From a virus: DNA of 19,401 nucleotides. The position numbers and the translations under genes are program-made. Of this stretch, positions 700 through 19,345 are shown in pieces. The first letter of the stretch is position 1. Each line of letters begins with the position of its first letter. The stretch lies in UHGV virus genome UHGV-0140152; one strand, 5' to 3'. The notes under the pieces were generated by a model. It was not told the origin of the DNA and ran no database searches. It saw only the letters and a program-made list of their open reading frames with translations.

Positions 700-1560
700 T
701 ATCAATAAGTTATAGTTGTTTATACAAACCAGAAAACAACTGAATAACAGATCAATGAAACCTCAACACTTTCACCCGATTTGGTCTAAAAAATTGACGT
801 TTTCACACATCACTTCTTATACCCGCAATTCTACGCAGCAGACAGCGCCACAGCGTCCAATTTTCACCACAGACGACTCAACACACTACCAACAAAAACA
901 CACGCTCAAAATCGCTCCCGTTGCGTTACACAACCATATAAACAACTTATTTTCAGGAATAACAAAACAACTAAATAACACATGCGCCATTCCCAAAAAC
1001 AACCAACCTCTTTATGGCAGGCTACCGAAAAGACCCACCTCTTCTTCCCAGGCTACCGGACAACCAACCTAACTTTCACAGGCAATACGAAAACATTCAT
1101 GCGCGCGATACCCACGACACGCCATTCCCCAAACAGCGAAGAAACACCAGAATCACTGAAACCCCAACGAAGCCTGTTACCGCAAGGATTCTCTCAATCC
1201 CAAAAGACACGAAACATAACAATCACGGGAAACGCCATTACCCAATACACGAATAACCACAAAAGCCTTTCACACACTCCAGACAAACAACTCAAACACA
1301 ATAACGAAAGGAATCGCCCACCTGCCATTACTCCATACACGGAGAAAAACAATCACCAAAACGACGAGAACACCCCATAGAAGAACCACCGCAAAACGAA
1401 CGAAACCATTTACACCGACAGAGAGAACAACACACCCAATTCACCAACAGAATTAGTCGCCGTATAGAACGTTCTGGAAGGAGTGAGCATTAACGTCCAT
1501 AGAGAGGTTGAGACAGATAAAACACGAAGAAAACACAACATGTATAGCGAAGAAGCCAGG
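700..1560 (+). other. about 850-bp non-coding tract, A+C-rich and G-poor on the plus strand
   Basis: Strong strand compositional skew. The only ORFs are overlapping low-complexity P/T/N/Q-rich frames with no RBS. Contains degenerate roughly 30-bp repeats starting caggctaccg (about 1017-1083). Confidence 0.6.
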
Positions 1561-1802: not shown

Positions 1803-2165
1803 ACAGGTATAGCGAGAGGGAGAGTTGCGGCTACCCACCTGTAATGTGCGGGAAGAAGAGAGACGCTCACGTGCAGGTGAACTTACTTACCGCTGGATTC
1901 CCTCTGAATGCCCAGCTACAGCGTAATTGTGCCAGACAGTCAGCGGGTCACAATCGATTTCAGTAGGTTTTCGGGGAGAGGATTATTCTGTCCACCAGCC
2001 ACCTTCGGCCACTAAATCAGAATAATGTAAAAAGTGTACTCGGTACTGAACCTGAAAAATCACTGCCAAAACCACATTCACCGGAATAAAATCCTTTTTC
2101 GCCTTTGCGTTATTGCGATAATAACACCAACAAGAAAACAACGTGTTTAGGCAAAGGAGAAATAC

Positions 2166-2342
2166 ATGTACAGGCATCTGAATGTCAGTATCACCCTCGA
2201 TGACGTTATCCACTCTCAGGATGTAGCTGGTCGCGTGGTGACGCTCATCTCTGAAGGATACAGAGAAGGGATGTTTGATTTCCATATCGAGGACAACCCA
2301 ATGTCCGTCGCGTGGAACTGCACGACGTCAGAAACAAAGTGA
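2166..2342 (+). CDS. small hypothetical protein (58 aa, MYRHLNVSITLDDVIHSQ...)
   Basis: Not in the ORF track (too short). AAGGAG sits 7 nt upstream of ATG; the leader taacaccaacaagaaaacaa is shared with the gene at 7473; stop lies 10 nt before the next gene. Confidence 0.5.
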   Translation: MYRHLNVSITLDDVIHSQDVAGRVVTLISEGYREGMFDFHIEDNPMSVAWNCTTSETK

Positions 2343-2352
2343 GGGTGAATAG

Positions 2353-2571
2353 ATGATTAAGATGCCTGTGATGGTTGAGGTGTGGAACGTGGATTCCCTG
2401 GCCGAGTGCCTGGATGCAGTGGGGCCGGAGCTGTATCGCAAATTGTGGTCGTTCGTCCCGGCTGAAGGGGAATCACCCAAAGGGAAGGAGATCTGGCACC
2501 TGCTCAGTGAAGATGAACAGCGGGAGCTGGTGGACGCGGTACACATTGAGTTCCCGGACGACGAAGATTAA
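2353..2571 (+). CDS. small acidic hypothetical protein (72 aa)
   Basis: Track ORF; GAGGG RBS 7 nt upstream; acidic C-terminus EFPDDED; followed by a terminator. Confidence 0.6.
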   Translation: MIKMPVMVEVWNVDSLAECLDAVGPELYRKLWSFVPAEGESPKGKEIWHLLSEDEQRELVDAVHIEFPDDED

Positions 2572-2577
2572 GAGTGA

Positions 2578-2601
2578 GGCCACCAGCACGGTGGCTTTTT
2601 G
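2578..2601 (+). terminator. intrinsic terminator
   Basis: GCCACC agcac GGTGGC hairpin followed by TTTTT. Confidence 0.7.
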
Positions 2602-2710
2602 CTGTTTGCAACCTCCGGGGCAGCGCAGCGCCGTAACGCTATGCTTTGTAGCCTTTTTCTTACTGGTATTATTTACGCCATTGAGAAAACAAGTTGTTTA
2701 CGGAGTTGTG

Positions 2711-3025
2711 ATGAAAAAATCATTGGTTCTTGGTCTGGACAAAGACCAGAAGAGAAAAGAGAAGCCTGCACTGGTTGCTCAATTAACTTTGCTGGACATC
2801 GTTGCCAATGGAACCTCTATTCGTCTGTTCCGTGAAACAGCGGTGTCTTTCGATAAAAACACCTTTACTCGTTATGTAATGAATGTTCGTCGCCAGCGTG
2901 GAAAAGGCTGGGTGGCATTTCAAAGAATGTGGCCTGCACATCAGCTCGAGCTGGCTTTGATGGAAGTAAACCGCGTGGCCCAGCAAGAAATTCAGAGAGC
3001 ATCAGTGATGGCAACAGCCTGGTAA
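2711..3025 (+). CDS. hypothetical protein (104 aa, MKKSLVLGLDKDQKRKEK...)
   Basis: In-frame ATG inside track ORF 2375..3025, downstream of the 2578-2601 terminator; GGAG 5 nt upstream; AAACAAGTTGTTT palindrome at about 2686-2699. Confidence 0.6.
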   Translation: MKKSLVLGLDKDQKRKEKPALVAQLTLLDIVANGTSIRLFRETAVSFDKNTFTRYVMNVRRQRGKGWVAFQRMWPAHQLELALMEVNRVAQQEIQRASVMATAW

Positions 3026-4317: not shown

Positions 4318-4425
4318 AGGTCTGGGAGTTACTTCAGTTTTAAAAATGCCTGCTTCCGTATATATAAATAATAAGTAACTTAATAAATATATACGGAAGC
4401 AGGCACTGTTAAGACTCCAGAAGTG
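4318..4425. repeat. structured palindromic element, copy 1 (17-bp stem, conserved AT-rich 22-nt loop)
   Basis: CCTGCTTCCGTATATAT-aaataataagtaacttaataa-ATATATACGGAAGCAGG with flanking ggtctgggag. A near-identical copy lies at 19171-19267. Confidence 0.7.
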
Positions 4426-4656
4426 AGCAAAAATCAACCTAAAAAGACACTGAACTCACCAGAATAAACTTAACCAGCCAGTACAGGCGCTGAAGTCTTC
4501 CGTAGCAGGCATCAAAGGGAATTTCGTTAAGGTACTTCAGCATAGGGTGGATGGATATCAAACCGTATGTGTATTGCCTCTCGTTTGATGCCTCCTGAAG
4601 CACCTTTAAAAGTTTTTTAAAAGCGCTACAATGACTATCAGATAAGAGGAGGTTTT

Positions 4657-4908
4657 ATGAGCTATCAAATTCTGACGACGACAGCAGCCAGCATTACTGA
4701 GCTGAAAAGAAACCCTATGGGCACTGTAGCTGAAGGTGAGGGGGAGGCCGTCGCAATCCTGAACCGGAATGAACCCGCGTTTTACTGTGTCCCACCAGAA
4801 CTTTATGCCTACTATCGGGAACTCGCCGAGGACGCTGAACTTAACGCGATTGCAGATGAAAGAATGAAAGAACCGGACATTGTGAAGGTTAACCTGAATG
4901 ACCTATGA
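4657..4908 (+). CDS. stbD: type II antitoxin, Phd/YefM (StbD-like) family
   Basis: 83-aa protein MSYQILTTTAASITELKRNP... resembling StbD/Phd antitoxins; GAGGAGG RBS; overlaps the downstream RelE-like toxin gene. Confidence 0.8.
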   Translation: MSYQILTTTAASITELKRNPMGTVAEGEGEAVAILNRNEPAFYCVPPELYAYYRELAEDAELNAIADERMKEPDIVKVNLNDL

Positions 4909-5179
4909 GCTGGCATTTGAACGCAGGGCACTGAAAGAATGGCAGAAGCTCGGCCACACTGTTCGTGAACAATTCAAAAAGAAGCTGTCAGAGCGCCTGA
5001 AAAATCCACATGTCCCCGCAGCCAGGCTATATGGTCATACTGACCGTTACAAAATTAAGCTTCGCGCATCCGGTTACAGGCTCGTTTATCAGGTAATTGA
5101 TGAGAAGGTTGTTTTGCTTGTCATTGCTGTAGGAAAAAGGGAAAGCAGCGAAGTCTATCACACGGCTGATACTCGTTAG
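4898..5179 (+). CDS. stbE: type II toxin, RelE/StbE family mRNA interferase
   Basis: 93-aa protein with ...RALKEWQKLG..., ...YKIKLRASGYRLVYQVIDEKVV..., ...VGKRESSEVY..., closely matching E. coli RelE as I recall it. Classic coupled antitoxin-toxin arrangement. Confidence 0.85.
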   Translation: MTYELAFERRALKEWQKLGHTVREQFKKKLSERLKNPHVPAARLYGHTDRYKIKLRASGYRLVYQVIDEKVVLLVIAVGKRESSEVYHTADTR

Positions 5180-5440: not shown

Positions 5441-6160
5441 ATGAGTGCGCGTCTTAAGAAGCTTATCAAAAAGCGTAAATCTCTTAAAGAACATGCAGAA
5501 TTGATAAATTTAATTGAAAAACGTTTTCCAGTCATTTCGGATATTGAGGACTTCTATTGGGTGGAGAAATGTAAAGTTTGGGATGGCATTGATGATGTAA
5601 AAGATGTGGATGATTTTGTCAGCAAGTACAACCCAGACATTAACTACAAACTAGCTGATGATTTTGCTGGCTCGTCTAAAGATGATCCGCTTCCTGATTG
5701 GTTTAACATTGATGATTATCCTAGTTGCATGTGTACCACCTACACCAACAAAGATTTTAGTAAAGCGTGGTTTGCTATTGCTTATGGCTGTTATTTCAAT
5801 AAGTCCGACGGAAGCAAAAGACCATATTTTCTCGCTGAAATAGACTTAACCAGCGGAGAGATTACAGTACACGAAAACCACAGGAATCTAATGAAGCTTG
5901 TTGATAGCGTTCGCGTACTGGATACAGACGCCCAGCAATTAACGAACAATGCATGGTTCGGACTTGATGGAGTAAAAGGGGGTATCGAACTGATAATGGG
6001 TCATCTTTTAAATGAATACTCGGACTGGTATCATCCGCCACACAATCCGCTTGAGTCATTTGACGATCCGCTTGAGCCATTTGACGATCCGCTGAAGGAC
6101 TACATCGATGAACCAATATATATGATGGAATCTTTTCAATTAGATATGATTCCAGCATGA
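5441..6160 (+). CDS. highly acidic hypothetical protein (239 aa); distant paralog of 8856..9503
   Basis: Track ORF; AAGGAG RBS. Shares ...DFSKAWF...FLAEIDLTSGEITV... and NPLESFDD with the minus-strand protein at 8856..9503. Confidence 0.75.
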   Translation: MSARLKKLIKKRKSLKEHAELINLIEKRFPVISDIEDFYWVEKCKVWDGIDDVKDVDDFVSKYNPDINYKLADDFAGSSKDDPLPDWFNIDDYPSCMCTTYTNKDFSKAWFAIAYGCYFNKSDGSKRPYFLAEIDLTSGEITVHENHRNLMKLVDSVRVLDTDAQQLTNNAWFGLDGVKGGIELIMGHLLNEYSDWYHPPHNPLESFDDPLEPFDDPLKDYIDEPIYMMESFQLDMIPA

Positions 6161-6165
6161 CAAAC

Positions 6166-6197
6166 GCCACCAGTTAACGCTGGTGGCTTCAAGTTTT
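6166..6197 (+). terminator. intrinsic terminator
   Basis: GCCACCAG ttaacg CTGGTGGC followed by TTCAAGTTTT. Confidence 0.65.
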
Positions 6198-6199
6198 GC

Positions 6200-6342
6200 T
6201 CTCATCACCTCAGGTCAAATTTCCTCGTTTGCAACCTCAGGTCAATTTAAGAATGATATCACCTGTATCCCTGAACTTACTTCTTTTCTGCCTGTTTCAT
6301 TCAGCGATGATTATTACATCGAAAACAAACGAGGAATTAAAA
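6200..6342 (+). promoter_or_regulatory. cassette leader 2 (homologous to 5205-5440)
   Basis: Two acctcaggtcaa repeats, conserved block cctgaacttacttcttttctgcctgtttcattcagcgat and GAGGA RBS. Confidence 0.55.
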
Positions 6343-8855: not shown

Positions 8856-9503
8856 TTATTCAAAATATGGAAATGCAGAATTTTCTTCATGATCTAATAC
8901 GAAAGTTTTTTCATTAATATAATTTGGCGCATTATCGCCAAATGATTCTAGTGGTTCGAGATGATTGAAATCATCTTTTTTAATAAAGTAGGATATATAA
9001 TAGATACCATCGTGTAAATCAGCCAAACCACACCAAATATAATAGCCAATAGGATAACATGCAGGACCACGATTCACATAAACTGTAATTTTTCCGCTTA
9101 ATAAATCCATCTCAGCAAAAAAAGCTAATCCGCTTTTTTCCTCTTCTCCTTCTTTTTCTCTGATTTTTCCGTTTAGAACGTCAGCACTTTGAATAAACCA
9201 CGCTCTAGTAAAATCCGCGTTAACATATGTAGCAAATTCGCCAAAGTCGCAATTTTTGCGCAAGTTGGGTAAATCCTCGATTAAATCGAGATTGATATTT
9301 AATTGCGCTGTATTTTCAGCAATAATTAGCTCTGCTTTCGTTAATTCCGTGTTATTAAATTCTGGCTTTTTTTCTGGTAATTTGTGCACTACTTCTTTGA
9401 TTTTGTCAGCGAATTTAATTTTTGATTTAATCAATGGAAGACGAGATTCAGCCATCTCTACGAAAGCAGAGATAAAAGATTCGCAAACAGTAAAAGTTTT
9501 CAT
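8856..9503 (-). CDS. hypothetical protein (215 aa); distant paralog of 5441..6160
   Basis: Track ORF; GAGGAA RBS. Shares ...DFTRAWF...FFAEMDLLSGKITV... and EPLESFGD with 5441..6160. Confidence 0.75.
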   Translation of the reverse strand: MKTFTVCESFISAFVEMAESRLPLIKSKIKFADKIKEVVHKLPEKKPEFNNTELTKAELIIAENTAQLNINLDLIEDLPNLRKNCDFGEFATYVNADFTRAWFIQSADVLNGKIREKEGEEEKSGLAFFAEMDLLSGKITVYVNRGPACYPIGYYIWCGLADLHDGIYYISYFIKKDDFNHLEPLESFGDNAPNYINEKTFVLDHEENSAFPYFE

Positions 9504-10549: not shown

Positions 10550-11113
10550 TTAAAATGGAAGGATTCGGTCAACCCAATCGAAGAGAACAATCATTCTTGC
10601 ATGTTCCCTGATTTTCATCGTCACCTGACAAGCATCAACGCCTAACGACACTCCCTCTATTTCACGGCCATCCGCCATGTAGACCCTTATAGATCTGCCG
10701 TTTTGATGAGCTTTGCGACATATCTTAAAAAAGTCACGACGTGATGGCTGGTTGTTCACGTAGTCAGGATGTACGGTAAGCCTGTCCGCAAAGTCCCCAT
10801 CTACTTCTGGAGGTATAATCGTTTCTATAGAGCTAACTTTCCCAAGAGGAAGACGAACTCGACGCTCTTTGCTTCTTGGAACGGGTGATAGATCAAGTTT
10901 GTTGCGTGATGGTAGTGTTCCCTGTACATACATGTTGAATACCTGTCCATCTTCCATCGTGACTTTTACAGGAACAGAGTGTGCCCTCCAGAACATCAAG
11001 GTATGTTCCACATTAGAATAGTCTCGCGGCCATACTTCAGCCGGTATGCCGTATGTAATATCTTTCGTCGTCATATCATTATAAAGTGGTTGGCAATATG
11101 TCCATTGTACCAT
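10550..11113 (-). CDS. hypothetical protein (187 aa; possibly 174 aa from an internal ATG at about 11074)
   Basis: Track ORF. The 11113 start overlaps the lipoprotein gene by 35 nt; the alternative ATG lies a few nt after the lipoprotein stop. No clear RBS for either. Confidence 0.55.
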   Translation of the reverse strand: MVQWTYCQPLYNDMTTKDITYGIPAEVWPRDYSNVEHTLMFWRAHSVPVKVTMEDGQVFNMYVQGTLPSRNKLDLSPVPRSKERRVRLPLGKVSSIETIIPPEVDGDFADRLTVHPDYVNNQPSRRDFFKICRKAHQNGRSIRVYMADGREIEGVSLGVDACQVTMKIREHARMIVLFDWVDRILPF

Positions 11114-14352: not shown

Positions 14353-15912
14353 CTAATCTCGTTTCAGAACTCCAAAATCGAATGTGCCATCAATTGGCAA
14401 TACACCTTCTGCAAAGCCAGGTGTGGTGTCGATGATGTGTTTTCGCTCATAAGAGTGAGACAACAGGTATTTGTTGCTAATGTCAATGAAATCAGTGATA
14501 AAACACACGTTTGCCTGATTTTTTTTTGCTCGTAAGCCACGACCGACACGCTGTCTCATTTCAACTTCTGCTTTCCCACCACCAGCAAGAATGACCGCGC
14601 CCACGCTTGGCACATCAACACCGACATCCAGAATAGTCGAGCCTATTAAAACATCTATTTCGCCAGACGCTAAACTGTTCAGCTTTGCTTGCCTTGTCGT
14701 CTGGTTCGATTCCCCATAGATGAAGTCAACTCTAAGGCCGGACTCTTTCATCATCTCCATCAGGATTTGCCCGTGGCGTTTAAGACGAACCAGAGTCATG
14801 CAGTTGAGAGAATGTTGCTTATAGAGCAATGCTTCTCGTACTATGGCCTCGTTTCGTCCCAAATTATACACGATCCCCAACTGATAAGCTTTTTGGTAGG
14901 CAGTGCTCATACCTACCCTAAAATTGAGGTGTTTGTTGGCAAGTTCTGCCTTGATTCTGACCTCGTCTGGTTTGTAGGCAACTTTATGATAAAGGAAATA
15001 TGGCTTTGCCAGAATACCTCTATCAATCAGGTATTTTTCTGTAACTTTAATTTCAATTCGCCCGGCCACAGCCATCAGACGCATGTTGGCTTCTGTAGAA
15101 GCCTTCATGAACGGCGTTGCCGTAAGCGCCAGGCGATAGTCTGCGTTCGTACATAATCTGGCAATGTCATAGAAATTAGAGCCTGAAGACTCATGCGCCT
15201 CTTCCAGAATAAGAAGAGAGACACTTGAAAGGAAGCGCTTCACTAACTCCTGACGTTTGAGGTGGTAGCTCTTCTTATCTGGTGTTGCATCGCGTGGTGG
15301 TTCTTCGAGGAAACTTGCAATAGTTTGAACTGTAGCGACGTTGATATGTCGTGATACCTGAAACTCACCCGAGCCAATGATTCCAACCTTTTGGTCTTTT
15401 AACCACGGTTCGCCATTTTTGGCGCGGTAGTCGATGGATCTCTGGAAGTTTTCGGCCATCTGAAACATCAGAACAGATCGGGTTGTTAAAAATAATGTCA
15501 TTCGACCGATACGTGCAGCTGCTTTGCAGGCAACGTTAGATTTCCCACCACCAGTAGCGATCTGCGCAATCATCATTCCCTCGCGAACCAGTGTTTCCAC
15601 AGTCTGATCCTGATACGCATAATCAGGATTGTATGGGAATGGGTTAACCGCCGGATTTGGCTTTCCAAGCGCCGGGGCTTTGTCTTTGCGGATATGAACA
15701 CATTTGATGCCCGCCTTGTTCAAGTTCGCCGCTACAGGCTTGGCAAAGCCAGCAGGGAACGAGTTTTTACTCCAGTGGAACATCGTGCTTGTGCCCTTCC
15801 AGTCGCCAGTGTCGACTTCGTAGCTCAACATCTGTTGCACCAGTTGCTTTACCTTGTCATCTGCGCCAGAAATAAGCGCATTTACTGCGTTAGATACAAT
15901 CCGAACAGTCAT
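14353..15912 (-). CDS. SF2 DEAD/DEAH-box helicase (519 aa)
   Basis: Walker A ATGGGKS, motif II LILEEAH (DEAH variant), motif III LTATP, motif VI QRVGRGLR. About 110-aa N-terminal extension of unknown function. Confidence 0.85.
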   Translation of the reverse strand: MTVRIVSNAVNALISGADDKVKQLVQQMLSYEVDTGDWKGTSTMFHWSKNSFPAGFAKPVAANLNKAGIKCVHIRKDKAPALGKPNPAVNPFPYNPDYAYQDQTVETLVREGMMIAQIATGGGKSNVACKAAARIGRMTLFLTTRSVLMFQMAENFQRSIDYRAKNGEPWLKDQKVGIIGSGEFQVSRHINVATVQTIASFLEEPPRDATPDKKSYHLKRQELVKRFLSSVSLLILEEAHESSGSNFYDIARLCTNADYRLALTATPFMKASTEANMRLMAVAGRIEIKVTEKYLIDRGILAKPYFLYHKVAYKPDEVRIKAELANKHLNFRVGMSTAYQKAYQLGIVYNLGRNEAIVREALLYKQHSLNCMTLVRLKRHGQILMEMMKESGLRVDFIYGESNQTTRQAKLNSLASGEIDVLIGSTILDVGVDVPSVGAVILAGGGKAEVEMRQRVGRGLRAKKNQANVCFITDFIDISNKYLLSHSYERKHIIDTTPGFAEGVLPIDGTFDFGVLKRD

Positions 15913-15976
15913 AAACCTCTTTCCTTAGTGCCTTTTGTATGTTATTTGGCTATTATAATAAGTAAGCAATTACTTA
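15913..15976. promoter_or_regulatory. compact divergent promoter region with palindromic operator
   Basis: Self-complementary tattataata containing TATAAT on both strands, followed by the palindrome TAAGTAA-gcaa-TTACTTA at about 15959-15976. Confidence 0.5.
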
Positions 15977-16675
15977 GTGGATTGTAGCAATAAAATGGAT
16001 GTAAAAATTACGATTTTGCAGGTTGATGTTGCCAACCTTCGCCCGAATACCTGGAACACCAATTCGGTTGGTGCGCAGAATTTTGAAAAACTGAAAGGTT
16101 CTATCGAAAAATTAGGCTTTTTTAAACCAATTTTGGCTCGTGAAATTGAAGATGGATTTTTTGAAATCCTCGGTGGCGAACATCGCTGGCGTGCCGCTAT
16201 TGAGCAAGGAATTTCAACGGTTCCAGTGCTTTCTGTGGGCAAAATTAGCGATGTCGTAGCTAAACAGATGTCACTGGTGGACAACGAGCGATATGGTGAA
16301 GACGACCAAATCGCATTGCAACGCTTCATTGAAGAAATTCAGTCAGAACTTGACTATCAACTGTCTGAAATCGCCCCGTATGACGACGAAATCTCGATGG
16401 TTTTAGCAAAAGAGGCGGCAATCGACCTTGAAGCACTGGAGGCGTTGTCTCGTGGTAGTGATGAGCCTGTCGATACCGACAAACGAGAGAAAACCGAACG
16501 TGTGGGGGCGGAACATCAGACCATGCGCTTCAAAGTAACTTTCGATGCGTCAGATCGTGTTGCAGAAACCATAAAAAACATCATCAAAGAGCAGGCTATT
16601 AACACCGGTAATGAAATGGAGAACGCTGGTGAGGCTCTGGTGTGGCTGGTCGACTACTACAAGGAGCGTATGTAA
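15977..16675 (+). CDS. ParB/Srx-like N-terminal domain protein (about 226-232 aa)
   Basis: ParB-box-like motif ILGGEHRWRAAIEQG. The track start at 15977 is GTG; an alternative ATG lies at 15995; no strong RBS for either. Confidence 0.7.
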   Translation: MDCSNKMDVKITILQVDVANLRPNTWNTNSVGAQNFEKLKGSIEKLGFFKPILAREIEDGFFEILGGEHRWRAAIEQGISTVPVLSVGKISDVVAKQMSLVDNERYGEDDQIALQRFIEEIQSELDYQLSEIAPYDDEISMVLAKEAAIDLEALEALSRGSDEPVDTDKREKTERVGAEHQTMRFKVTFDASDRVAETIKNIIKEQAINTGNEMENAGEALVWLVDYYKERM

Positions 16676-17343
16676 TGACCAAAAAGTTTGAAATCGTATA
16701 TCGCGACCCGGCAGATCTTATTCCCTATGAGATGAATGCCAAAAAGCATGATGAACAGCAGATCCGAGATCTGGCCGCAGCCATTAAAAAGCGCGGATTT
16801 GACCAGCCAATTACGGTCGATAAGAACGACGTAATTATTACTGGCCACGGCCGCCGTGAGGCTGCAATTTTTGCTGGACTTGAGCGCGTACCGGTTATTG
16901 TTCGCGATGATCTCAGTGATGACGAGGTTCGTGCGAAGCGCCTTGAAGATAACCGACTTGCCAGCATTGATTACGATGCAATTAAGCTACAGAAAGAGCT
17001 TGAGTCGCTTGTTCTGGACGATATCGAGGTTTTCGGCTTTGAAGAGCGTGAGTTGAATGTTCTCGTTGGCAGCATGACAGAAGAAATGGACACCGACTCG
17101 CTAGTTATCGATCTGGGCGAAGAAACTAAACGACAGAAGGATGAACACACCGAGATCAGTCGTGAAGTTGCAGCGGAAGAAGTACGTGTTGTCGACGTAT
17201 TGGGCTTTAAAACGCTCCCTGCTGGCTCTGCCATTGTTGTTGGTGATTTGCTTGCCCACATGGAAGAAATGACGAGAGAAAGCGGGGTAGACGCATTTGT
17301 GGCATATGCGGAGAAGATCTCTTCCGGGGAGATGGCTGCATGA
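16675..17343 (+). CDS. second ParB/Srx-like domain protein (222 aa)
   Basis: Motif IITGHGRREAAIFAG. Preferred start is the ATG at 16675 within track ORF 16642..17343, 8 nt after AAGGAG and overlapping the upstream stop by 1 nt. Acidic C-terminal half. Confidence 0.75.
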   Translation: MTKKFEIVYRDPADLIPYEMNAKKHDEQQIRDLAAAIKKRGFDQPITVDKNDVIITGHGRREAAIFAGLERVPVIVRDDLSDDEVRAKRLEDNRLASIDYDAIKLQKELESLVLDDIEVFGFEERELNVLVGSMTEEMDTDSLVIDLGEETKRQKDEHTEISREVAAEEVRVVDVLGFKTLPAGSAIVVGDLLAHMEEMTRESGVDAFVAYAEKISSGEMAA

Positions 17344-18005
17344 GCAAATACATCATCAACGTATCGTTTCAGACACGCGTAAATAAAACCACGCGCACGT
17401 TGGAAATCGCTGAGTCGTTCGGGCTTGGCCTGGACGAAAAAGAGTGGACGCTTTACGACAATCTGGAGCTGGAAGTGAAGCAGGGCGATGTGGTGTACAT
17501 CACCGGCCAATCCGGTTCAGGTAAATCCGTTGTGTTGCGCGAGCTGCAACGCCAGATGAAGGATGAAGGGCTTTCTGTAGCTTCTATTGATGACTTTACC
17601 TTCGATAATGAGGTTAACGTCATTGACCAACTGGGCAAAACTACCAGTGATGCGCTTGGGTTGTTATCTATGGCAGGTCTGAACGATGCATATCTGTTTG
17701 TTCGCAAGCCTTCTGAAATGTCAGACGGTCAGAAATATCGTCTCAAGATTGCCAAACTGATTGAGTCAGGCGCTAAAGTGTGGGCTGCTGACGAGTTCGG
17801 TGCTGTTCTCGATCGTGTAACCGCTCAGGTTGTGGCATCTAACCTCCAGCGTGCCGCTCGAAAGGTTGGTGCGACGGTAATGGTGGCGACGACTCACGAA
17901 GACTTGAAGAACGCGCTGCGCCCGGATATGCAGATCACCAAGCACTACAAAGAACGCGTGAAGGTGGAGTATCACAATGGTAGTCATGATGAGGCTCATT
18001 CATGA
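17340..18005 (+). CDS. stand-alone ABC-type ATPase, nucleotide-binding domain only (221 aa)
   Basis: Walker A GQSGSGKS, signature-like SDGQKYR, Walker B plus D-loop VWAADEFGAVLD, H-loop ATTHE. No permease gene nearby; start overlaps the upstream stop. Confidence 0.8.
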   Translation: MSKYIINVSFQTRVNKTTRTLEIAESFGLGLDEKEWTLYDNLELEVKQGDVVYITGQSGSGKSVVLRELQRQMKDEGLSVASIDDFTFDNEVNVIDQLGKTTSDALGLLSMAGLNDAYLFVRKPSEMSDGQKYRLKIAKLIESGAKVWAADEFGAVLDRVTAQVVASNLQRAARKVGATVMVATTHEDLKNALRPDMQITKHYKERVKVEYHNGSHDEAHS

Positions 18006-18892
18006 CGGACATCATCATTAAACGCTACCGCCCTGAAGAGTTTCCGCGTCATCTGGACTTTCTGGAGCGAATGACAGTCACAAAGGGAACTGTAGAGGAC
18101 TGGCACGCTCTTAAGTCGCTTCACTACAAAACAGACGGCAAACCTTTCGCGCCAACTTACTATCGCTGCGAACTTGACGACCGTCTGGTGGGCGTCGTGG
18201 TTATGGCTTACCCGAAACTACTGCTGGCACCTCGCCACCGCATGTTTCCTAAGTTGAAACCAACCACCAATACCACCGTGGCTAACCAGTACTGGGGTCG
18301 GTACGTGAATAACAACTTTGCGGTGATCAGTCGCTCAGTTGTGGATACTCAGTATCGTGGCGTAGGCGTCTCTTATCGAATGATTAACCTGGTTAGCAGG
18401 ATGCATGACCGGCCAATCATTGAGATCCAGTCCTCGATGAGCAAATACAATCCCTTCGCCATGAAAGCAGGGTTTAAGTTCATCCGCCCTGAGCGACCGA
18501 AGAGCTATGAAAGTGCACTGCGTGTTTTCCAGCGTCATTTTCGCTCCGACCCGGGTGATAACGAGGCGATCGTCAAAGAGTTGTTCGCAATGAGCGAGTC
18601 ACGTCGTCGCCGTGCACTGCGTGATATGGTGGCGGACTACCACAAGAACAGTTCCCTGGCAAAAGCTGGGCGGAATCGTGGCACGACGATTCAGGACATT
18701 GCCGACAGTCTGGTGGACGAGGCCAGCATTGTGAAGCTGCTCAAGGACATTCACAACCTGAGCTTTACGTCTCCGCTGTATGGTGTGTACCGAAACCCTG
18801 ACTTTGGTCGTCGACTGCCTGACACGCTGCCACTGCTGGCATTCGACAAACAACCTTTGGATAAACCGTTAGAAATTGCTTTACCGGCATAA
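18002..18892 (+). CDS. GNAT-like acyltransferase-fold protein with C-terminal extension (296 aa)
   Basis: Motif-A-like AVISRSVVDTQYRGVGVSYRMINLV and motif-B-like YNPFAMKAGFKFI; start overlaps the ABC ATPase stop. Confidence 0.55.
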   Translation: MTDIIIKRYRPEEFPRHLDFLERMTVTKGTVEDWHALKSLHYKTDGKPFAPTYYRCELDDRLVGVVVMAYPKLLLAPRHRMFPKLKPTTNTTVANQYWGRYVNNNFAVISRSVVDTQYRGVGVSYRMINLVSRMHDRPIIEIQSSMSKYNPFAMKAGFKFIRPERPKSYESALRVFQRHFRSDPGDNEAIVKELFAMSESRRRRALRDMVADYHKNSSLAKAGRNRGTTIQDIADSLVDEASIVKLLKDIHNLSFTSPLYGVYRNPDFGRRLPDTLPLLAFDKQPLDKPLEIALPA

Positions 18893-18901
18893 GGATTTGC
18901 C

Positions 18902-19168
18902 ATGACGTTAACCGACAAACAAAAGGACATAATCAAAACGCTCAATCTCGGTTATGAGCGAGGTCATCTACTTGATCTGGACGAATTGCTTGAAGTTTTG
19001 CCGTACAAGACAACCAAGCAAAGTATCCAGTTCTCAATTCGCGCTCTGATAAAAAAGGGGCTGGTGGAGAAAGGGCATACGCGTCAACGCAGTGACAATC
19101 GCTATCACCGCCGGACTCTTGGGTTAACCACTTTAGGTCGAGCCAAAGCGAAGTTACTGGTGATGTAA
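18902..19168 (+). CDS. small basic protein, possible winged-helix DNA-binding regulator (88 aa)
   Basis: Track ORF; start 9 nt after the upstream stop; HTH-like segment TTKQSIQFSIRALIKKGLVEKG; last gene of the operon. Confidence 0.5.
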   Translation: MTLTDKQKDIIKTLNLGYERGHLLDLDELLEVLPYKTTKQSIQFSIRALIKKGLVEKGHTRQRSDNRYHRRTLGLTTLGRAKAKLLVM

Positions 19169-19282: not shown

Positions 19283-19345
19283 CAGTAAACAAGTTGGTTA
19301 ATAGATGCAGTAAACAAGTTGTTTTAGAGCGCATGGACGCGCTCT
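19283..19345 (+). promoter_or_regulatory. direct repeats and operator-like palindromes upstream of the next gene
   Basis: cagtaaacaagttg twice; the second copy forms AAACAAGTTGTTT, identical to the palindrome at about 2686-2699. Followed by the hairpin AGAGCGC-atggac-GCGCTCT. Confidence 0.45.

Follow-up and report, generated by a model that had tools for sequence, protein, structure and literature searches.

The closest described relatives of the gene pair studied here are SSU5_111 and SSU5_112 of Salmonella phage SSU5 (WP_016051704 and WP_164708971 in SSU5-like plasmids), which are annotated as hypothetical proteins only. SSU5-type phage-plasmids are frequent in clinical Salmonella, E. coli, Shigella, Klebsiella and Enterobacter. 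With respect to function, the described proteins that invite comparison are more distant in kind. Ocr (T7 gp0.3) and ArdA are small, strongly acidic, non-enzymatic proteins that mobile elements encode and express early. T7 gp5.9 and lambda Gam act against RecBCD and, like Ugi and AcrIIA4, are negatively charged and belong to the 50–90 aa size class, in which mini-proteins can mimic nucleic acid. With respect to regulation, the phage-plasmid P1 scatters an asymmetric C1 operator before many operons, and a small protein, Coi, inactivates C1. Finally, the leading regions of plasmids carry co-oriented arrays of small genes in which anti-defence, methyltransferase, SSB and toxin-antitoxin genes are mixed, and anti-defence genes concentrate in such early-entering, co-oriented small-gene regions (Samuel and Burstein 2024, PMC11541004).

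The present locus lies in UHGV virus genome UHGV-0140152, within a 19,401-nucleotide stretch of DNA that was analysed as a whole and is referred to as the window. A sequence-only reading had picked out a small acidic two-gene unit, ORF1 and ORF2, as possible anti-defence or DNA-mimic cargo. The stretch around the two genes matches 665 plasmid records, chiefly from Klebsiella, Escherichia, Enterobacter and Salmonella, and 651 of the 665 are typed as non-mobilizable; among the matches listed, the plasmids are 107–127 kb long and IncFIB wherever typing was checked. SSU5 and related phage records match the same stretch, and collinearity with SSU5 extends over the 19.4-kb window, the SSU5 region in question encoding a FljA-like repressor, a DEAD-box helicase, two ParB_N proteins and an ABC-type ATPase. 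Because of the plasmid and phage matches and of this collinearity, the window is assigned to an SSU5-type phage-plasmid. Its conserved module at 14353–18892 consists of a DEAD/ResIII helicase with a partial PADLOC PbeA-like match, two tandem ParB_N proteins, the ABC-type ATPase and a domain-less 296-aa protein.

The pair sits in a variable accessory stretch of the element. The arrangement of the locus is not alike in the Salmonella/Enterobacter, E. coli and Klebsiella lineages: ORF1 may be present or absent, and additional genes are inserted from lineage to lineage. ORF2 is a shell gene, with at most one Yersinia plasmid record showing a match versus 62 that match the window, and 94 E. coli records versus 428. 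The neighbourhood had been described as containing toxin-antitoxin and defence genes, and the first half of that description holds: a ParE toxin (E 9e-13) with a weak Phd-like partner is encoded at 4657–5179. The second half was not confirmed: what PADLOC returned were generic matches to HNH, helicase and ATPase models. A near-perfect palindrome of about 100 bp (4328–4427) lies upstream of the genes for the Phd-like protein and ParE and gives Rfam microRNA-hairpin matches on both strands, all under the gathering score. Another part of the variable cargo, absent from the best-matching plasmids, encodes two divergently placed paralogous proteins (5441–6160, plus strand; 8856–9503, minus strand). 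These have the common motifs FxxAWF...(L/F)AE(I/M)DL(T/L)SG(E/K)ITV, together with acidic repeats of the DPLE(S/P)FDDPL type, and match nothing in Pfam or PADLOC.

The locus is a self-contained bicistronic operon, made up of a promoter-like cassette, a palindrome, ORF1, ORF2 and a terminator. On the plus strand, ORF1 (2166–2342, ATG to TGA) encodes 58 aa with a net charge of −5 and is the homologue of SSU5_111 (phrog_15489); ORF2 (2353–2571, ATG to TAA) encodes 72 aa and is the homologue of SSU5_112 (phrog_6757). As read from the sequence, ORF1 is preceded by the Shine-Dalgarno AAGGAG (2154–2159), and ORF2 by GAGGG (2341–2345), which overlaps the ORF1 stop codon. The bicistronic unit is closed by an intrinsic-terminator-like hairpin, GGCCACC/GGTGGC followed by a T run (2576–2603, plus strand), that is kept in SSU5 and in the plasmid pCFSAN076210. 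The SSU5 pair occupies the same position, with the same cassette, spacing and terminator. The physical features first read from the sequence were borne out: the coordinates are exact, stop and next start are 10 nt apart, and the second product, put at about −11, carries 18 D/E and 6 K/R for a net charge of −12 over 72 aa and ends in EFPDDED, which includes the proposed PDDED tail. Both PHROG profiles are matched with confidence (ORF1, E 2e-33; ORF2, E 7e-44) and both are annotated as function unknown. The ORF2 match is full length (positions 1–71 of 71), while that of ORF1 covers positions 21–72 of 72, its N-terminal part being shortened by a deletion. The dN/dS values are 0.03–0.27 for ORF2, which is thus under purifying selection, and 0.28 for ORF1 against its Klebsiella homologue. 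Given the PHROG matches, the many homologues and these ratios, both ORFs are real genes.

The acidity of the pair is unusual for the element, because among the 46 SSU5 proteins of 130 aa or fewer the ORF2 homologue ranks second and the ORF1 homologue sixth. The most acidic small proteins of SSU5 are gathered in one 6-kb stretch at 88–94 kb (L005 38000–44100), which encodes SSU5_104 (DUF1380), 105, 106, 110, 111, 112 and 115 with net charges of −6 to −16; several of these genes have a cassette copy of their own. No paralogy was found by hhalign between ORF2 and ORF1, nor between ORF2 and the very acidic SSU5_115 and SSU5_110.

Upstream of the operon, the promoter-like cassette (2100–2135, plus strand) contains a conserved GCCTTT (2101–2106), an extended −10 element TGC-GATAAT (2114–2122) and the conserved spacer aacaccaacaaga (2123–2135). 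It is followed directly by the operator-like 13-bp palindrome AAACAACGTGTTT (2136–2148), which departs by one mismatch from the consensus AAACAA-N-TTGTTT. A generic sigma-70 scan did not call the cassette because it has no −35 match. Its distance from the palindrome and the Shine-Dalgarno is fixed in at least 12 SSU5 copies and in two further copies of the window, and it probably acts as a promoter. The first of these two copies (240–261, palindrome 262–274) stands before a DUF5983 gene at the start of the window; the second (2650–2699, plus strand; TGG-TATTAT at 2664–2672, palindrome AAACAAGTTGTTT at 2687–2699, with 2650–2686 as its promoter-like part) precedes the neighbouring gene at 2711–3025 (phrog_5125). 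Some 13–14 nt separate the (TGn)GATAAT-like −10 from the palindrome, which the Shine-Dalgarno follows closely; with GATAAT taken as the −10, the palindrome covers about +6 to +19, i.e. a lac-O1-like repressor position.

With at most one mismatch, AAACAA-N-TTGTTT occurs seven times in the window versus 0.14 expected (211–223, 262–274, 940–952, 2136–2148, 2687–2699, 19287–19299 and 19312–19324), and 20 times in the SSU5 genome versus 0.23 expected, where the sites precede about 17 operons. Among the SSU5 genes behind a site are parA, a dnaB-like helicase gene, nrdB, ant, a DNA methyltransferase gene, a small-terminase-like gene preceded by two tandem sites, and the small genes SSU5_104, 111, 113, 115 and 117. 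One palindrome at a fixed position in many promoters is the arrangement of a regulon, and we infer that a global repressor of the element uses it as its operator. The site before our operon is kept in SSU5, pCFSAN076210, E. coli pM-64-197 and Klebsiella elements, and, among the ORF2-family loci compared, such sites are confined to SSU5-like ones. This arrangement resembles the P1 C1 regulon, in which one operator stands before many separate phage-plasmid operons, and the two have a DnaB-type helicase, a methyltransferase and small accessory genes in common. They differ in that the SSU5 motif is a perfect 13-bp palindrome whereas the P1 operator is asymmetric, and in that repression in SSU5 is deduced from the arrangement of sites. 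Since we found no mention of the motif in the literature, it looks like a previously undescribed regulon that is global to SSU5-type phage-plasmids.

These observations change the weight of one argument for an anti-defence role, namely that the small acidic genes were under a shared operator. It is true that the palindrome precedes both ORF1 and the next gene. The same operator, however, is found genome-wide and also fronts the housekeeping operons of the element for partition, replication and nucleotide metabolism; co-regulation of the pair is therefore not specific, and it says nothing in particular about anti-defence.

Which protein binds the palindrome is a separate matter. The Pfam scan singled out no candidate, and three proteins may be considered: the FljA-like protein (10550–11113), a SSU5_116-like HTH protein and an 88-aa protein (18902–19168). 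The first, on the minus strand, is a full-length homologue of FljA, the phase-1 flagellin repressor (Pfam Flag1_repress, E 1e-70), and is kept across SSU5-like elements; it is a candidate to recognize the palindrome on DNA or on the leader RNA.

The operator also bears on the idea that ORF2, ORF1 or both might counteract the element's own global regulator, as anti-repressor or decoy, in the manner of Coi and C1. Such an acidic protein would mimic AAACAA-N-TTGTTT, or bind the repressor, and thereby help to turn on the regulon. The two proteins share acidity and a size too small for catalysis, and the operator of this very operon is one mismatch off and kept so in SSU5 and pCFSAN076210, a degeneracy that could allow it to escape first from repression. 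Against this, ORF2 homologues are widespread among phages and conjugative plasmids lacking this operator, so the function of the family cannot depend on this regulator; in addition, Pfam singled out no regulator in the element on which such a protein could act. We thus consider this explanation very unlikely.

Further upstream, the window contains about 750 nt (~700–1500, plus strand) that are strongly A+C-rich, with GC skew reaching −0.55 and AT skew +0.65, and that hold no credible ORF. A cassette-like copy of promoter and palindrome lies in this stretch at 940–952, and a terminator-like hairpin at 1577–1603. The SSU5 counterpart of the 940–952 copy is at 90740, within an unannotated gap (90381–90891), and pCFSAN076210 likewise has an unannotated gap upstream of the pair (L001 4620–5754). 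The stretch may give rise to a long C/A-rich non-coding transcript. A structured RNA between this region and the pair, at 1620–1960, was considered and rejected, the z-scores being +1.15 and +0.38.

The two members of the operon have different histories. Of the 416 plasmid records with an ORF1 homologue, 412 are non-mobilizable and E. coli contributes none; the other phages that were examined yielded no homologue. ORF2 stands alone, with no ORF1 beside it, in E. coli pM-64-197, in Klebsiella conjugative plasmids and in every distant phage examined. The description of the locus as a two-gene unit thus stands in so far as the genes adjoin in one operon, but the unit is not an obligate one, because ORF2 occurs without its partner. 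Judging from where homologues were found, ORF1 is lineage-restricted, seen only in SSU5-like elements, and dispensable for ORF2.

In this element, ORF1 also looks partly degraded. Whereas ORF2 differs from SSU5_112 by one residue, ORF1 differs from SSU5_111 by 13 missing residues and five substitutions. The missing residues correspond to a 39-bp in-frame deletion with its junction inside ATCACCCTC (2190–2198), and the deletion lies between two 9-bp direct repeats, ATC(A/T)CCCTC. Relative to SSU5, ORF1 has five non-synonymous and two synonymous changes and ORF2 one of each, counts too low to be tested statistically. In a collection of about 15 billion proteins, no more than 2 contigs carry the exact 58-aa variant. 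One could take the deletion, the balance of substitutions, the rarity of the variant and the E. coli elements that keep ORF2 without ORF1 to mean that ORF1 is decaying and functionally dispensable here, which would leave effectively a one-gene unit. Yet the deletion keeps the reading frame, the stretch that it affects varies naturally in length (68 to 72 aa), and the shortened protein still models coherently as beta-alpha-beta-beta, with moderate confidence (pLDDT 74). Together with the small substitution counts, this makes decay of ORF1 a doubtful explanation.

ORF2, by contrast with the lineage-restricted ORF1, is part of a large family that carries no Pfam or functional annotation and is spread over phages, phage-plasmids and large conjugative plasmids. 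An exhaustive profile search gave 52 representatives at 50% identity, and a second search gave at least 250 clusters at 90% identity. The members are all without a name or a precomputed Pfam domain, and scanning 30 of them against Pfam revealed no domain. By tblastn, ORF2 homologues are present in 1045 plasmid records, 566 being non-mobilizable, of the phage-plasmid type, and 470 typed as conjugative. Among the matches listed, the conjugative carriers are Klebsiella and Raoultella plasmids of 230–460 kb, and the one inspected is IncHI1B/IncFIB with a MOBH relaxase. Scans of the sequence collection with family sub-alignments returned just four viral and two genomic loci, and the broad family alignment yielded no usable pattern for such a scan.

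The sequence of ORF2 contains the motif W..D..AEC..G....LY..LW....P....W..L(S/T)..E..EL..EFPDDED. Across the family alignment, D14, E18, L31 and W32 are invariant, W11 and W48 nearly so, and the AEC motif is common; about nine positions are acidic in at least 60% of the members, and an EFP(D/E)3 tail recurs. ORF2 has these invariant and near-invariant residues as well as the length (70–110 aa) and helical character of the family. The conserved residues, i.e. the three Trp, the AEC motif and Leu, look structural. A confident AlphaFold2 model built on 22 homologues (pLDDT 88, pTM 0.72) has five short helices and shows ORF2 as a compact, strongly acidic helical mini-protein. Acidity varies over the family, with net charges from −3 to −13.

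The company that the family keeps is that of small genes. On metagenomic phage contigs, distant members are part of long runs of tiny co-directional genes, and at some of these distant phage loci the family gene stands beside DEAD-helicase and ParB_N genes, as it does in SSU5; in unrelated metagenomic phages (L008–L010), the flanking order is a DEAD-helicase gene followed by a ParB_N gene. In Klebsiella pneumoniae pEBSI041-1 (L018 13887–14222), as well as at another locus (L012, ~5950–6330), the family domain is joined to an N-terminal CxxC-x11-C-x4-C segment that resembles a Zn-ribbon. The fused homologue in the conjugative plasmid examined, of the IncHI1B/FIB type, lies within a 28-kb array of about 40 small hypothetical genes, all on one strand and with DUF4942, DUF6012 and DUF957 genes among them; other Klebsiella loci have a DUF5983 gene next to the family member. 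In rare cases, the partner of a fusion is a winged-helix-like domain (P0071, P0089). The co-oriented arrays of Klebsiella conjugative plasmids are reminiscent of plasmid leading regions, with the placement of these arrays in a leading region being putative. The likeness has two limits: our window is from a phage-plasmid rather than a conjugative plasmid, and the family motif is absent from the supplementary tables of PMC11541004.

We searched widely for a known function of the pair. Neither ORF has a Pfam-A match at E ≤ 1 or an NCBIfam match; PADLOC has none for ORF1, ORF2 or the adjacent small genes, and scans of neighbouring or allelic genes with Pfam, NCBIfam and PADLOC returned nothing. 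The Pfam models are taken to include Ocr, ArdA, KlcA and Gam. By the Pfam-A and NCBIfam profile HMMs, neither protein falls in with Ocr, ArdA or KlcA (ArdB), whereas in net negative charge, −12 over 72 aa, ORF2 does resemble this class; its charge density of −0.17 per residue seems comparable to that of Ocr/ArdA-type proteins. Ocr and ArdA are larger, elongated dimers, while ORF2 is predicted to be a compact 72-aa helical bundle without Pfam or fold match. Two PDB searches linked neither protein to a known anti-restriction, DNA-mimic or anti-CRISPR family, no solved DNA mimic or anti-CRISPR having a significantly similar fold, and Foldseek against viral models gave no match at E ≤ 0.001. The resemblance to T7 gp5.9, lambda Gam, Ugi and AcrIIA4 is one of kind, namely size class and negative charge, with no sequence or structural similarity to the pair.

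Several more specific assignments were considered and dropped. First, PHIKZ068 appeared in PDB profile searches (E 0.029), with a score summed from sub-threshold parts of 9.2 and 6.5 bits. Second, HMG-box matches in the same type of search reflect merely a local 'W..LS..EK' helix motif. Third, the tail of ORF2 (EFPDDED/EFPDDDI) might be taken for a mimic of the SSB tail, in which the terminal aromatic residue is essential; ORF2 misses that residue. Fourth, a type II toxin-antitoxin pair was rejected in that no TA domain is present, both proteins are acidic and neither has a DNA-binding fold; the window's actual pair of this type is the one at 4657–5179. Fifth, the locus does not have the make-up of an anti-CRISPR operon, there being no adjacent HTH Aca with a small Acr and no similarity to known Acr or Aca proteins.

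The literature is equally sparing. We found no mention of the accession numbers of the pair, and two anti-defence catalogues, PMC11541004 and the EVADES preprint, do not contain the family motifs in their supplements. A DefenseFinder survey of phage-plasmids reported Rad as the sole anti-defence system in the SSU5 group (10.1101/2025.09.12.675607), and therefore the pair is not a recognized anti-defence system. That result bears on known systems and does not show that the pair lacks an anti-defence role. Conversely, no homologue is annotated with an unrelated function, an outcome that would have spoken against the anti-defence hypothesis, and so the hypothesis is not refuted. An anti-defence or DNA-mimic role of the pair is thus plausible, without specific support; we cannot tell, the evidence neither supporting nor refuting it.

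Within these bounds, the following scenario is tentatively preferred. The pair would be silent or low in the plasmid state and would be made once the palindrome regulon is derepressed, the timing being deduced from the operator. Because ORF2 is without catalytic features, it most likely acts by binding in stoichiometric amounts. With its negative surface it would occupy the site at which a host protein binds nucleic acid; the most plausible targets are nucleases of restriction, of other defence systems or of recombination. ORF2 would in that case be an inhibitor that serves anti-defence or host takeover, and ORF1 either its optional partner or an inhibitor in its own right. We advance the core of this scenario, a stoichiometric binder of a nucleic-acid-binding host protein that is made on regulon derepression, as a possibility that falls short of probable. 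The points in favour of anti-defence are circumstantial: the small size, the family-wide acidity and the lack of catalytic residues; the position in a gene-flux hotspot of a mobile element; and the recurrence of the family in small-gene arrays of three kinds of mobile element. Against an inhibitor, there is no sequence or fold link to any characterized anti-defence or DNA-mimic protein, and some family members are weakly acidic, with net charges of −3 to −5. The stronger version, whereby ORF2 is the first noticed member of a large, unnamed family that forms a new class of nucleic-acid-mimic inhibitors, deployed in SSU5-type elements through an undescribed palindromic regulon similar to that of P1 C1, is in our judgement unlikely.

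The fusions deserve separate consideration, for the rare winged-helix-like and the common Zn-ribbon-like ones fit a general protein-interaction module equally well. ORF2 might then be a protein–protein adaptor for, or a modulator of, some target outside defence, for example host RNA polymerase, a nucleoid protein or a factor in replication or recombination, and would serve host takeover or element physiology instead of counter-defence. Consistent with such a module, the conserved residues are chiefly core-forming and the surface is variable, ORF2 is co-regulated with replication, partition and nucleotide-metabolism operons, and in other phages the family gene is found among nin-like small genes by the DEAD-helicase and ParB_N genes. 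On the other hand, the Yersinia and E. coli counts given above mark ORF2 as shell rather than core, conserved strong acidity is more typical of nucleic-acid mimics, and the fold of ORF2 matches no known RNA-polymerase or nucleoid modulator. On balance, we regard an adaptor of this sort as rather unlikely, and retain, with the reserve expressed above, the stoichiometric inhibitor as the working model.

Taken for what it is, the locus is a well-delimited and ordinary piece of mobile-element dark matter with a testable hypothesis attached. If ORF2 turns out to be without activity against host immunity, the locus would be one more uncharacterized accessory gene pair. If it does inhibit host immunity, it would help to explain how SSU5-type elements establish themselves in new hosts, and the same would hold for the Klebsiella megaplasmids that carry the fused homologue; a widespread new anti-defence family would be added. 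The wider interest lies in the size and spread of the ORF2 family and in the undescribed SSU5 operator regulon, which offers a concrete handle on gene regulation, so far unstudied, in the SSU5-type group.
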